Positions 10,142-36,715 of a DNA stretch of 64,000 nucleotides are shown piece by piece (the stretch's first letter is position 1; each line of letters opens with the position of its first letter). The stretch comes from Phycisphaerae bacterium. GTDB lineage: Bacteria > Planctomycetota > Phycisphaerae > UBA1845. The notes under the pieces are model-generated. The model was not told the origin of the DNA. It saw only the letters and a list, made by a program, of their open reading frames with translations, and did no database searches. The stretch spans positions 113,497 to 177,496 of the forward strand of contig JANQQK010000035.1 of the NCBI GenBank assembly GCA_028289375.1, given 5' to 3'. A program made the translations under genes and the position numbers.

Positions 10142-10981
10142 ATGCGTAAGTCGATGGGTGTCTGGGTGGCGGTGGTTGGCGTGATGGCGGGGCCGGTCCT
10201 CGGTGGCGGCGGGGTGGTTGATCTGCAGATTGATCCGGTGCAGTCGTTTGCGGATTTCGAGGTTTGCTTTGGCGGTGTCTGCCGGATGGATGACTCGGAC
10301 GTGGCCGGGATGCTTCAGATCGACGTCGACAATCCCAATGCCCCGGCGGAAATTCTGCTGCTGGATTATGACCTGTCATTGGTGGATCCGCTCTCGTTTT
10401 TCATCGAGATCTTCCTGGGGTCGATCACGCTGAACGCGCAGGATGTGGCGTTTGTCGATCCGCAGCCGGGCGAGCCATTCGGTCCGGTTCCGGTAAACGC
10501 GGGTCAGTTCACGTTTGAGAATGTGCCGGTGACGGCGGAGGGATCGCTGAATTACAACGCCGTCGGCAGTGCGTGCGTGATCGTGCAGCAGCAGGGGTTG
10601 CCGTGCATGGGGATGTTTGACCTTGGATTGCTGGGGGTGATAACGACGGAATCGTTCACCGGGGAGATTCAGGTCGTTGACGGCGAGGTGACGGTGACGG
10701 TCGATTCGGAGTTCATGATCGTGTTCGATCCGGACAATCCGGACTTTGGCACGGTGACGGCGATGACGAGCGTGGTGGCGACCGGGCAGATCGTGACGCC
10801 TGGCGATACCGACGGTGACGGGGATGTCGATCTGGTTGATTTCGAGACGTACCTGGGGTGCGTGACGGGTCCGGACGGTGGGCCTATCGCCGACGGATGT
10901 GCGGCGGTTGACTTCGATGGCGACGATGACGTGGATTTCATCGATCTGGACGAGTTTCAGCTGCGGTTCACCGGCGAGTGA
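10142..10981 (+). CDS. Secreted protein with a C-terminal dockerin-like double Ca-loop tag, hypothetical
   Basis: GGAGG ribosome-binding site and signal peptide MRKSMGVWVAVVGVMAGPVLG. The C-terminus is DTDGDGDVDLVDFETYLGCVTGP...GCAAVDFDGDDDVDFIDLDEF. Confidence 0.65.
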   Translation: MRKSMGVWVAVVGVMAGPVLGGGGVVDLQIDPVQSFADFEVCFGGVCRMDDSDVAGMLQIDVDNPNAPAEILLLDYDLSLVDPLSFFIEIFLGSITLNAQDVAFVDPQPGEPFGPVPVNAGQFTFENVPVTAEGSLNYNAVGSACVIVQQQGLPCMGMFDLGLLGVITTESFTGEIQVVDGEVTVTVDSEFMIVFDPDNPDFGTVTAMTSVVATGQIVTPGDTDGDGDVDLVDFETYLGCVTGPDGGPIADGCAAVDFDGDDDVDFIDLDEFQLRFTGE

Positions 10982-11082
10982 ATGGCTTGACGACGCCGCG
11001 AGAATCGTTGCGGGCGCGGCGTGTTTGACAGAACCAAAGGGCGTGGCTAGCGTACGAACGCTGGGGCGTTTACGGCTTTGAG

Positions 11083-35000: not shown

Positions 35001-36715
35001 AGACGTTCGCCGCAGACGTTTCGGGTATCGAGACGTCCATCATTCTCGACATCGAAGCGGGTGTCGACGCCGTGCGACTGCTCAGCGGCGCGAGGCTCAG
35101 TGTGTCGGCGGGGAGCTTGAGACTCGACGAGGCCGCCGGCATCCGCAATGACGGTTCGCTCGCGATCCGGTCGGGGCGATCCATCGTGGCGGCTGCGCCG
35201 TCGCCAGTACGTTTGCTCGGCACGTCACCGTTTCGACTTGATGGCGCCACGGCTCGGTTGACGGGCATCGAATCCGACAATGCGTTCTTGAATCTTGGTC
35301 GCGTCGAGGGTAAGGGCATCATCGATTCGGCGTTCCTGAACGCATCAACCGCGACCGTGGAAGCCAATTCGCCAGGCTCAACGTTGCTCATCACAGGCCC
35401 CGGACGCAAGGTGAACAATGGCTTCTTCCGTGCGGTGGACGGTGCGACGTTGCACATTGGCAACACGAGCGTCAGCGGTTCCGGCAGGTTGCAGGCCTCG
35501 CGCGGCACGATTCTCATCGGACCGCTGGAAGGCCCGACGACCGCCGGCGGGTCCGATGGCTCGACGGTCACGGTGTCAGCCAATTCCGCCCAAGCCAGCA
35601 ATGGCGGCAATCTCTACGCCGACGGTGACGCTGAGACATTCCTCAGTGGTACGCTGACTATCGACAACTGCGGCACCTACCAGGCCGCGCCACTCTCCGA
35701 CGGCGTCTCAGCGTCGCTGTCCGTCAACGCGGTGGTCGTCGCCGAATCGATACCCGGCAGCGGCGGGAGCGTGTTGCTGACGCAATCGATGGATCTGTCG
35801 GTCACGAACGCTGTCGAACTGCAAGGGGGCGGGCTGCTGCAGTTGCTGGGTGGCTGCACGCCGCCGCGGCTGGAGATGTCGCAGAATTCGTCGATGTCCG
35901 CAGGGTCATTGAACATTGCCGGCAATGCGTATGTTGAAGTCGTCGACAATGCCGACGCAAACATCGGTGGTGACGTTGCGATGTTGGAGGCTGTGGGCTG
36001 CGATGGGACCAATCTGGGCGGTTGCACGCCGCCAAGGCTGACCGTGGTCGCACAAGCATCGATGACCGTCGGTGGCGATCTCACACTGCCGAACAGCGCG
36101 AACGTGACCGTCGGCAACAACCCCGACGAAGGCACCACGATGTCACTGGCTGGTGATTTCGTTAACGAGAGCACAACGCCGGAGACATTCCAGTGGCTCA
36201 ACGGAACACTGATACTCGACGGTGAGGATCAGCGATTCGAAACGGCAGGCAGGGATGTGGGAGCCGTGCCCGACGGATTGATCAACAACTTCGCCATCGG
36301 CCGGCTGGAAGTTGCATCGAACACGACCGTCACCTTCTCGGACATGTTCGACAATGATCGACTCGGACAGTCGCCCTGCACGGAAGCACTCTACGTCAAC
36401 GAGTTGGTGCTCGCACCGAACGCGATGATCATCCTGAATGAAACGACGATCTACGCGGGGACCGTGATCAACAACGGCGGCACGCTGCAAACCGACGGTG
36501 CGTGTGGTCGGTTGGCCCGCATCTGTGAGGGAGACTTCGACGGCGACTGCACGGTCACGCTGTCCGACTTCGACGACTTCCAAAACTGCGTCTCGGGACC
36601 GGGCAACGTCGCATTGTCCGAAGGATGTGCGGTTGCTGACTTTGATCTGGACGGCGACGTGGACTTCGTCGACTTCGGACGCTATCAGTCCTCTTCACGC
36701 ATGCCGGAGAATTGA
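32018..36715 (+). CDS. Giant (1,565-aa) secreted beta-helix/repeat protein with a dockerin-like C-terminus
   Basis: Signal peptide MSRMRVMRLPFFLWAGVFCVGMSRPVLA. About 12 degenerate repeats resemble the T5SS/PEP-CTERM-associated repeat. A Cys-rich CxDCNNNLIPDSCDLEAGTSSDTDSNGVPDEC module follows, then a second repeat region. The C-terminus is CEGDFDGDCTVTLSDFDDFQNCVSGP...GCAVADFDLDGDVDFVDF. Confidence 0.8.
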   Translation: MSRMRVMRLPFFLWAGVFCVGMSRPVLAVDRIWDQPTFGIFEFGSSWQGGVVPGPNDTAVFGATPTVSFAPVTVQFEFGANVGGMTVESGDYTLIAVTNNLSFNVSGAVDVGTRRSAQGPDLSSTADLTFDFSGGLTMGSVTIGIDRGFGPRDGNVSVTRFTQLFSSDLFIGRSADATGEATVRNSNASWNVTNGAFVGQAGTGFLDVVQSGRLLADSMEVATELTGSGTVNVNGQGSRIETEKSVEVGVRSEGNMFVTRGGMVTTNTFARLGTTAPAIGNVVVNGSGTSWTVQNSMEVGASGTGTLTVAGGGVVAAETANTGTSPGGEGTIIVTGPGSTFVTELQLWTGLGGDGELRVEDEGTVNTNTWARLAELGAATGLAFVDGAGSDWNINQTLDVGYRGHGELSITNGGRVFANSADTGTQIGSNGLIAVIGDDSSFETETELRIGNRGVGDLQIADGGLVETNAFARIGEATTSFGTADVTGTGSRWNISDSWAVGWQGPAIATFNDGGFVSANDLTIARFDDSFGSLEFNSASASISTFINVGANSAGEMNLYDGSSVNNDGFSRIGGSQQADGSVIVSNSTWDMAGFFQIGWQGAGALDINQGGHVSCDWVRVAEFEGSNGFVSVDGTGSSLQAAGFLNVGNKDIGSMFITDGGNVTANNSVIGNDQTGIGEIYVSGKGAKLSLTNQLRVGGRGDGLLDIRNGGQVSNTWCRVGESAGGLGDVTVSGPSSSWINTDFVDVGPNGVGKVHLENGGRISSPNFRINKFGLVDGDGKIEAPVINLGLFAAGTQGGVEITGDYTQAADGSMLITIDDSSSLAASSLLRVEGTAFLGGTLEIDFEEGFTPSPGTTYTVMTFASRVGKFAAFDCVGFENDDVLSIKYTKTSVELVVVEPCGPTCYDLSADCDGDGIVDACQISDCPGEDPSCQDCNNNLIPDSCDLEAGTSSDTDSNGVPDECVGWDGGGKTNRWSDAANWDDDTVPNNTVEQTFAADVSGIETSIILDIEAGVDAVRLLSGARLSVSAGSLRLDEAAGIRNDGSLAIRSGRSIVAAAPSPVRLLGTSPFRLDGATARLTGIESDNAFLNLGRVEGKGIIDSAFLNASTATVEANSPGSTLLITGPGRKVNNGFFRAVDGATLHIGNTSVSGSGRLQASRGTILIGPLEGPTTAGGSDGSTVTVSANSAQASNGGNLYADGDAETFLSGTLTIDNCGTYQAAPLSDGVSASLSVNAVVVAESIPGSGGSVLLTQSMDLSVTNAVELQGGGLLQLLGGCTPPRLEMSQNSSMSAGSLNIAGNAYVEVVDNADANIGGDVAMLEAVGCDGTNLGGCTPPRLTVVAQASMTVGGDLTLPNSANVTVGNNPDEGTTMSLAGDFVNESTTPETFQWLNGTLILDGEDQRFETAGRDVGAVPDGLINNFAIGRLEVASNTTVTFSDMFDNDRLGQSPCTEALYVNELVLAPNAMIILNETTIYAGTVINNGGTLQTDGACGRLARICEGDFDGDCTVTLSDFDDFQNCVSGPGNVALSEGCAVADFDLDGDVDFVDFGRYQSSSRMPEN
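32480..34340 (+). repeat. In-frame coding tandem repeats (~12 units of ~50-60 aa) inside the giant protein
   Basis: The pattern G-x-G-x-L-x-[VI]-x-x-GG-x-V ... G-x-[VI]-x-V-x-G-x-GS-x-[WF] recurs. Examples are GTGTLTVAGGGVV...VVNGSGTSWTV, GHGELSITNGGRV...FVDGAGSDWNI and GVGDLQIADGGLV...DVTGTGSRWNI. Confidence 0.75.

Follow-up and report, generated by a model that had tools for sequence, protein, structure and literature searches.

The stretch of DNA considered here, which we call the window, comprises 64,000 nucleotides of the genome of a Phycisphaerae bacterium (assembly GCA_028289375.1, contig JANQQK010000035.1, forward-strand positions 113,497 to 177,496), and it contains three genes for secreted proteins, a small protein, a subtilase of the S8 protease family and a giant repeat protein, whose C-terminal regions are the subject of this report (Table 1). 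A first-pass annotation made from the sequence had proposed that all three have a signal peptide and end in the same dockerin-like, calcium-binding tag bracketed by cysteines. Its coordinates and quoted sequences for the three proteins are correct, and a crude hydropathy heuristic finds a hydrophobic, signal-peptide-like segment at the N-terminus of each (Kyte-Doolittle maximum 2.06–2.26), in agreement with the proposed signal peptides. The tag itself was recovered in the small and the giant protein, as described below, whereas the tail of the S8 protease resembles it at the superfamily level only. When the six frames of the window are searched with a relaxed Asp-loop pattern, the matches fall in these three open reading frames (ORFs), together with one isolated match in a minus-strand kinase gene, and nowhere else.

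The three proteins otherwise have little in common. In the small protein, the signal-peptide-like N-terminus is followed by a passenger domain that no Pfam or NCBIfam family covers, and then by the C-terminal tag. The S8 protease, for which position 26030 is a likely alternative start, is composed of a Peptidase_S8 domain, a proprotein-convertase P-domain, Cys-rich repeats in a region common to Dicty_CTDC-type proteins, and its C-terminal tail. In the giant protein, 11 repeats of the kind associated with type V secretion systems (T5SS) and PEP-CTERM proteins are accompanied by a Cys-rich stretch, an uncharacterised C-terminal half and the C-terminal tag. That Cys-rich stretch, 'DCDGDGIVDAC...DCNNNLIPDSCD...SNGVPDEC' (window 34721-34912, plus strand), has BLAST matches in an ORF of locus L008 (218-3241, minus strand) and in ORFs of loci L012 and L002, and is resembled by a run of the form 'DCN.NGIPD.C' in database protein P0209. 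The motif GGCTPPRL also occurs twice in the giant protein, 56 residues apart (window 35849-35872 and 36017-36040, plus strand).

Table 1. Carrier proteins, tags and Asp-loops in the window, and the ORFs of contig L018 that bear second-type tails. HMM, hidden Markov model.
Feature	Position	Strand	Remarks
Small secreted protein	10142..10981	+	279 aa; identical to database protein P0001 (100%)
Tag copy 1, Cys-bracketed, dockerin-like (small protein)	10793..10978	+	79.6 bits with an HMM built without the window copies
Loops of tag copy 1	10805-10843 and 10910-10948	+	Relaxed Asp-loop pattern
Secreted subtilase (S8 protease)	26003..28741	+	912 aa; Peptidase_S8 1.1e-47, P_proprotein 1.8e-8 (Pfam)
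Second-type tail (S8 protease)	28460..28738	+	96.7 bits with an HMM of three L018 ORFs
Asp-loop match in the S8 tail	28511-28549	+	Relaxed Asp-loop pattern
Giant secreted repeat protein	32018..36715	+	1565 aa; TIGR04393 1.3e-99, 11 stretches (NCBIfam)
Tag copy 2, Cys-bracketed, dockerin-like (giant protein)	36518..36712	+	53.8 bits with an HMM built without the window copies
Loops of tag copy 2	36533-36571 and 36638-36676	+	Relaxed Asp-loop pattern
Second-type-tail ORFs of contig L018	4170-5516, 7689-8558, 12594-14360		Second-type tail copies

The Cys-bracketed tag and a sister module

When the small protein was searched as a whole sequence, the matches comprised five orthologues (four besides itself) and some 35 otherwise unrelated proteins that are alike only in their last ~60 residues, at 50–68% identity. 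Thirty-five tag instances aligned easily (alignment A1) and gave the consensus xxxGDxDGDGDVDLxDFxxFxxCxTGPDGxxxxxxCxxxDFDxDxDVDLxDFxxFQxxFTG, in which Cys23 never varies and Cys36 hardly ever does. An HMM was built from 29 tags of unrelated proteins, leaving out the window copies and their orthologues. With it the small protein scores 79.6 bits (E 7e-24), the giant protein 53.8 bits (E 9e-16), and the best remaining E-value among all other window ORFs, taken in six frames, is 0.17. Because an independent model scores both proteins and no other window ORF, their tags represent the same module of ~60 residues. The two copies are 42% identical, have an equal loop-to-loop spacing of 35 residues and share a Phe at position 10 of loop 2. 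In copy 1, one Cys closes helix 1 and the other immediately precedes loop 2, and its protein terminates in ...FTGE; copy 2 has an additional Cys pair, with one member in the motif RICEG ahead of loop 1 and the other at loop-1 position 6, and it does not have the terminal FTG.

Conservation was counted over 334 tag instances in 187 proteins, which are phylogenetically non-independent. Asp occupies loop positions 1, 5, 9 and 12 in 90–100% of instances in both loops, and position 12 in particular in 99–100%; at position 3 Asp accounts for 75% and 78% in the two loops, and Asp and Asn together for 95% and 90%. Columns that are not acidic are conserved as well, among them Gly26 (86%), Pro27 (72%) and the Phe/Tyr positions. 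The two cysteines behave as a unit, with both present in 277 instances, neither in 48 and a single one in only nine (Fisher p 1.6e-47, a value to be read with the same lack of independence in mind). In the alignment of A1 with the dockerin DocCel5 (5nrm), they fall on a Tyr and an Ile that are presumably adjacent positions of the core, and the pair is most likely a disulfide staple.

Since the loops are so rich in Asp, and since the window copies score below threshold with Pfam (see below), it might be asked whether the likeness is simply a chance resemblance between low-complexity sequences, an objection that the first-pass annotation had itself raised on the understanding that the Cys and DF positions would then vary from protein to protein. 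They are conserved across hundreds of instances. The scores of both tags with an independent HMM that matches nothing else in six frames, the 6,056 cluster representatives found at E<=1e-10 in the search described below, the retention of the Cys, Gly-Pro and Phe positions, and a confident fold prediction all point the same way, and we rejected this explanation as having a negligible chance of being correct.

The tail of the S8 protease is a different matter. The tag HMM misses it, even with filters off and matches reported up to E=100; its hhalign probability against the canonical tag is 32%, and neither Pfam nor NCBIfam has a model that fits. Insertions lengthen its loops, a unit of the form 'GxGDFGxFSxCFG' is duplicated, and there are extra cysteines. 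A search with the protease C-terminus led to P0203, a protein of contig L018 that is alike over the whole tail, and on that contig this second type of tail is found on three different ORFs, with the canonical tag on a fourth. An HMM of the three L018 ORFs, made with the window excluded and describing a tail type that is uncurated and defined here, matches the S8 tail over its full length (96.7 bits, model positions 2-91) and has no other match in the window, the small and giant proteins included. Its signature, on unrelated proteins, is a '...[IV]GxGDFGxFSxCF...' unit that occurs twice and is flanked by CxxC. For the S8 tail, AlphaFold with a two-sequence alignment gave an unusable model, with a predicted local distance difference test score (pLDDT) of 37.5.

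Two proteins of the canonical family act as intermediates joining the two kinds of module, in that both are weakly matched by the second-type-tail HMM: P0157, which has 'DVDGVDYGVFAGCFNG' units, and P0184, in which an internal 'DLDGNGVVGTGDFGLFAAC...' module (residues 443-509) is present in addition to a canonical tag at the C-terminus. The second-type tail and the canonical tag thus co-occur on one contig and in one protein, and as judged from their sequences they are two sister modules that are related only at the superfamily level. Among the fetched loci, no orthologue of the S8 protease or of the giant protein carried the other type of tag.

Relationship to dockerins

Several lines of evidence identify the canonical tag as a dockerin. 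In a search of the PDB with the A1 profile, the double dockerin 8x39 is matched at E 1.3e-6 and DocCel5, a type I dockerin of Acetivibrio cellulolyticus, at E 7e-5 in one stretch that extends over profile positions 3-57. Pfam Dockerin_1 recognises 19 of the 35 tags (E<=0.01) and 43 of 100 carriers (E<=1e-4), and one cluster member of the tag family has been named 'dockerin type I domain-containing protein' by NCBI. The AlphaFold model of the small protein tag, computed with A1, is confident (pLDDT 93.3) and places helices at residues 14-23 and 49-58; each follows a loop, and no helix enters loop 1, a geometry that is that of an F-hand and not of an EF-hand. An Asp at loop position 12 and a missing entering helix are F-hand traits of dockerins, whereas EF-hands have Glu at position 12. 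When the model was compared with the PDB by Foldseek, the top 16 matches were all dockerins, with TM-scores of 0.52–0.71, the best being 2y3n_B (TM-score 0.71, root-mean-square deviation 1.6 Å over 59 columns). Type I dockerins are built of two tandem segments of ~22 residues, each with a 12-residue Ca2+ loop (Asp or Asn at positions 1, 3, 5 and 9, Asp at 12) and a helix after it; both canonical window tags have two loops of this kind, and the dockerin fold is seen in the predicted model, which was made for the small protein tag only.

There are also observations that weigh against a dockerin assignment. Against the Dockerin_1 cutoff of 22.9 bits, the small protein reaches 14.7 bits and the giant protein 12.2 bits as a whole sequence or 19.5 bits as an isolated tag, in matches that extend over nearly the full model, and the S8 tail has no match to Dockerin_1 at all. 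In the PDB search, EF-hand proteins obtain E-values of the same order as those of dockerins, and a phmmer search of the PDB with a single tag returns only insignificant matches to calmodulin. The Foldseek E-values are 0.35 or worse and so not individually significant, as is expected for 62 residues. The Dockerin_1 comparison that the first-pass annotation had recommended gave a divided answer, in which about half of the family passes and the window copies themselves lie below the cutoff, but its dockerin-like identification is borne out by the profile matches, the family-wide Pfam hits and the predicted fold. It is near certain that the tag is a divergent dockerin-fold Ca2+ module, and we regard it as a lineage-specific dockerin variant with a putative Cys staple.

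Two classes of protein that might be confused with the tag can be set aside. An EF-hand pair is similar in having two 12-residue, Asp-rich Ca2+ loops ~35 residues apart, and in its comparable E-values in sequence searches, but the tag has Asp and not Glu at position 12 and no helix leading into loop 1; calmodulin-type EF-hand pairs give a TM-score of about 0.3 with the tag model, as opposed to 0.55-0.71 for dockerins, and their sequence matches are below threshold. Substrates of the RTX or type I secretion system (T1SS) kind were rejected because there are no GGxGxDxUx nonapeptides in the tails and no RTX family in the Pfam and NCBIfam scans.

Comparison with characterised dockerins indicates what is particular to the tag. 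It is like the type I dockerins (PF00404; e.g. those of Clostridium thermocellum and A. cellulolyticus; 2ccl, 5nrm, 8x39) in its duplicated loop and helix, the Asp at position 12, a length of ~60 residues, its usual place at the C-terminus of secreted proteins and its predicted fold, and about half of the family hits PF00404. It differs in its Cys pair, which brackets the linker between the repeats, in the C-x-T-G-P motif after helix 1 and in the F-Q-x-x-F-T-G terminus; the solved dockerins to which the tag aligns have neither the Cys bracket nor C-x-T-G-P nor the FTG terminus. It differs further in its Planctomycetota hosts, in passengers that are not cellulases, in the position of the window copies below the Pfam threshold and in that no cohesin was found. 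The idea of a dockerin held together by an extra intramolecular contact has a precedent in the ScaA dockerin of Ruminococcus flavefaciens, whose clasp is reportedly a non-covalent contact between the termini; the putative staple of the tag is instead a Cys pair that would tie helix 1 to the beginning of repeat 2. The ScaA 'intramolecular clasp' is reported to stabilise its dockerin (PMC3821032).

Distribution and possible function of the tag

The tag is both abundant and restricted in its hosts. Of 1.84 billion cluster representatives, 20,490 match its profile at E<=1e-3; with the cutoff tightened to E<=1e-10, 6,056 are left. Judging from the listed pairs of score and E-value, E 1e-3 corresponds to ~33 bits, and the solved dockerins reach at most 31.4 bits with the same profile, so that most of the matching proteins should be closer to the Cys-bracketed subtype than to any solved dockerin. 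All 16 of the loci confirmed in a collection of species-representative genomes belong to Planctomycetota, mostly to Phycisphaerae, and the database matches that bear a name are 'Phycisphaerales bacterium'. Among the top 25 of 53 Pfam families in 100 carriers, the passenger domains include FG-GAP, beta-helix, PMP repeats, a lactonase propeller, BACON, FGE-sulfatase, Ig and GDSL lipase. By a crude test, ~60% of the carriers for which a Met start is called have an N-terminal hydrophobic segment, as compared with 25% of the other genes of the window. Carrier genes are often adjacent, with two each in loci L002, L007, L008, L010 and L011 and three in L017.

If the tag is a dockerin, what does it do? 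The tag comprises two 12-residue F-hand loops for Ca2+, a helix after each and a putative Cys-Cys staple, and we propose that after export it binds Ca2+ and folds; the face formed by the two helices would then hold the passenger, by non-covalent contacts, to a shared partner at the surface, either cohesin-like or a new type of receptor. The passengers in the window would be the small protein and the giant, adhesin-like repeat protein, and the sister module of the S8 protease probably does the same job. The evidence that the tag docks its passengers to a shared surface partner is architectural and comparative, and we consider the proposition about evenly balanced.

What the tag replaces is informative in this respect. 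TIGR04393 proteins by definition otherwise end in T5SS barrels or PEP-CTERM anchors, and the giant protein has the tag there. Similarly, the passenger of the small protein has a homologue in P0007 (32% identity over residues 30-215), in which the C-terminal slot is filled by the NCBIfam module NF041540, 'GC-type dockerin domain-anchored protein', at 85 bits. Because P0007 carries NF041540 in the place of the tag, dockerin subtypes are interchangeable on one passenger. The GC-type module is also a dockerin-like C-terminal module, but the copy in P0007, the sole one examined, differs from the tag in having no internal Cys bracket, TPDGTLD-type loops and a terminal Gly-Cys. None of the three window tails matches NF041540 (cutoff 29 bits), or any other NCBIfam model, at E<=10, with P0007 as the control, and P0039, of the NGPNRP subtype, reaches 14.7 bits. 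The P0007 locus (L019 10001-10891) also has a lamin-tail-domain (LTD) protein ~6 kb away.

A second indication comes from comparison within and between genomes. Mean identity is 49% for the 11 pairs of tags that come from the same genome and 40% for the 337 pairs that span two genomes (Mann-Whitney p 4e-4), and there are genome-specific tag signatures, such as DVDQ/ARLD in L017 and L006/L010 and the Phe at loop-2 position 10 of both window tags. Clustering of carriers within genomes is a further hint of a shared partner. Such likeness within a genome is what would be expected from co-evolution with a shared partner, although in so small a sample recent intragenomic shuffling would look alike.

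Other findings count against docking to one receptor. The two window tags, at 42% identity, differ at the helix positions that set specificity in cellulosomal dockerins, a divergence that seems a poor fit to one stringent shared receptor, and the likeness within genomes rests on 11 non-independent pairs. Nor did a partner come to light. A Pfam scan of essentially all window ORFs found no member of the Cohesin family, as the first-pass annotation had anticipated in seeing no cohesin-like partner; there is no cohesin among the top 25 of 53 families in the 100 carriers, or among the top 25 of 62 families in 35 ORFs that neighbour carriers in other genomes. A crude phmmer search with two CipA cohesin sequences also gave no match, which is a weak negative. 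Finally, the tag need not be an anchor, as it is followed by a PEP-CTERM in P0119 (TIGR02595, 26.7 bits) and by IPTL-CTERM-like tails in P0017, P0022, P0037, P0041 and P0043.

The cohesin result, together with the arrangement of tags in some carriers, gives substance to the view that the tag has no dedicated partner and acts on its own, either as a Ca2+ sensor or as a Ca2+-dependent folding or stability module that, outside the cell, would bind Ca2+ and stabilise or stiffen the C-terminus of its protein. The residues of the Ca loops are the most conserved and the surface positions of the helices are variable, internal copies and tandem arrays of up to seven copies occur, and some proteins have a genuine anchor such as PEP-CTERM in addition to the tag, all of which such a module would accommodate. 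It would leave unexplained the genome-specific signatures, the exchange for another type of dockerin on a homologous passenger and the pronounced C-terminal bias, 121 of the 187 carriers having their last full tag no more than 25 residues from the C-terminus. The predicted fold, moreover, is specifically that of a dockerin, and to our knowledge every characterised member of the dockerin fold is a protein-binding module. We therefore think a partnerless module unlikely, though it deserves to be taken seriously.

That same bias raises the question of whether the tag directs sorting or secretion, as a C-terminal signal, possibly cleaved, that is read by a dedicated machinery in the style of PEP-CTERM/exosortase, the C-terminal domain of type IX secretion system substrates or T1SS. 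Carrier proteins usually stop 0-3 residues past the conserved FTG, very many unrelated secreted proteins have the tag, and on one and the same family of passenger repeats it fills the slot of PEP-CTERM or T5SS barrels. PEP-CTERM, IPTL-CTERM and T5SS anchors are indeed similar to it in occupying this slot on surface proteins, TIGR04393 proteins included, but they consist of a transmembrane (TM) helix with a basic tail, or of a beta-barrel, whereas the tag is a soluble Ca-loop domain; on a reading of its sequence it has no TM helix, basic tail or RTX nonapeptides, and it is predicted to form a compact domain whose fold is known to serve in binding. For the window proteins a PEP-CTERM-type sorting domain was rejected, as there is no NCBIfam match and the ends FTGE, RMPEN and VLCTP are without a hydrophobic helix. 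The tag of the giant protein, as noted, does not have the FTG terminus at all. Roughly one carrier in three has its last copy away from the terminus: in 36 of the 187 carriers the last full tag lies 26-90 residues from the C-terminus and is followed by a third repeat, a PEP-CTERM or an IPTL-CTERM-like tail, and in 30 it is more than 90 residues away. The sorting-signal explanation is weakened by these recognised tails downstream of the tag and by copies that are N-terminal, internal or in tandem, and we hold it to be improbable.

The carriers with such tails are of some interest in themselves. In the five proteins with IPTL-CTERM-like tails, the second repeat becomes 'DIDCDDW..F..AWTEPGDPP' and is followed by a tail of the form 'IPTVSEWGLI + TM + RR'. 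PEP-CTERM follows the tag in P0085 and P0131 as well as in P0119, so that the tag and membrane sorting signals coexist.

It is also conceivable that the tag binds, in a Ca2+-dependent manner, a non-protein component of the surface such as a polysaccharide, lipopolysaccharide or peptidoglycan, and so serves as an anchor that needs no cohesin. The cohesin searches of window ORFs, listed carrier families and neighbour ORFs are compatible with this, variable helix surfaces would suit a ligand of low specificity, and the Asp-rich Ca2+ sites could perhaps form bridges to anionic glycans. The genome-specific signatures are better suited to a co-evolving protein partner, and we know of no characterised dockerin-fold module with a non-protein surface ligand. 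We would give this possibility no better prospects than those of a sorting signal, and still favour docking to a protein partner.

Docking of this kind has been suggested before in the same bacterial class. The 'planctosome' hypothesis, advanced for Phycisphaerae of the Nemodlikiaceae (Andrei et al., 2019; PMC6461901), envisages a cohesin/dockerin complex that tethers secreted peptidases through non-cellulosomal dockerins, proprotein-convertase P-domains and Ca2+-dependent assembly at the surface; it is a proposed model that rests on the detection of cohesins and dockerins by Pfam. The S8 protease of the window has a P-domain too, but here no cohesin was seen, the tags are of a Cys-bracketed subtype that is mostly missed by Pfam, and the protease has the second-type tail.

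It is tempting to go one step further and imagine that the Cys-stapled dockerin, the 'GxGDFG' sister tail and the GC-type dockerin are interchangeable address tags of a surface-display system that extends throughout the phylum Planctomycetota and is independent of cohesin. We put this forward as a speculation that is unlikely to be correct.

Neighbouring genes and implications

The surroundings of the carrier genes include several other features. Directly upstream of the giant tag-carrier gene, window 28744-31813 encodes a Ser/Thr kinase with TPR repeats (minus strand) and an extracytoplasmic function (ECF)-type sigma factor (plus strand), and L002 has a similar gene for a kinase with TPR repeats (2-2923, minus strand), oriented divergently to a neighbouring pair of tag carriers; such an arrangement may reflect regulated expression of carriers. 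On the minus strand, a 1047-aa ORF (39104-42250) has a complete transketolase, with N, pyrimidine-binding and C domains, fused to a transaldolase (TAL_FSA, 7e-80) and would be a bifunctional pentose-phosphate enzyme, and at 21854-23878 an ABC-transporter ATPase domain (1e-30) is joined to HlyD-type membrane-fusion domains (HlyD_3, 5.7e-13) in an unusual fusion. A 375-aa protein with zinc-ribbon and Cas12f TNB-like matches adjoins an SPFH protein (Band_7_1, 3.6e-100) with a C-terminal GYF_2 domain (15692-18043, minus strand), and a second SPFH protein lies at 3565-4806. Two large secreted proteins of the BNR/sortilin type, a sulfatase and FliM are among the genes around 52969-59154 (minus strand), 59321-60823 (plus strand) and 62228-63274 (plus strand), which fits a flagellated, polymer-degrading planctomycete.

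Both dockerin expansions in Planctomycetes (PMC5264255) and the docking hypothesis (PMC6461901) are already published, and in the open-access literature we found no description of either the Cys-bracketed subtype or the second-type tail. The caution of the first-pass annotation that the module might be a standard dockerin with known cohesin partners was thus partly justified: dockerins of Planctomycetes, the NCBI naming and the docking model were all known beforehand, but a cohesin partner was not found. The general picture of dockerins is unchanged, and the function suggested for the tag is a proposal from comparative analysis. At the level of annotation the benefit is more immediate, as one profile marks about 20,000 cluster-representative proteins and Pfam sees about half of the sampled carriers as dockerins; secretomes would be better annotated with curated models for the Cys-bracketed subtype and the second-type tail. 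With its paired cysteines, a putative disulfide, the tag would also be a natural, covalently stabilised dockerin of possible interest for designer scaffolds.

Planctomycetota, and Phycisphaerae in particular, are abundant degraders of polymers in marine and fresh waters, and how they retain enzymes and adhesins at their surface is poorly understood. The tag would offer a defined bait with which to hunt for a receptor, and hence a direct test of the planctosome idea. Were the three kinds of C-terminal module indeed interchangeable address tags, secreted proteins in their tens of thousands, including proteases, adhesins and sulfatase-related enzymes, would be held on a putative receptor, and the disulfide would make their docking depend on an oxidising extracytoplasmic environment.

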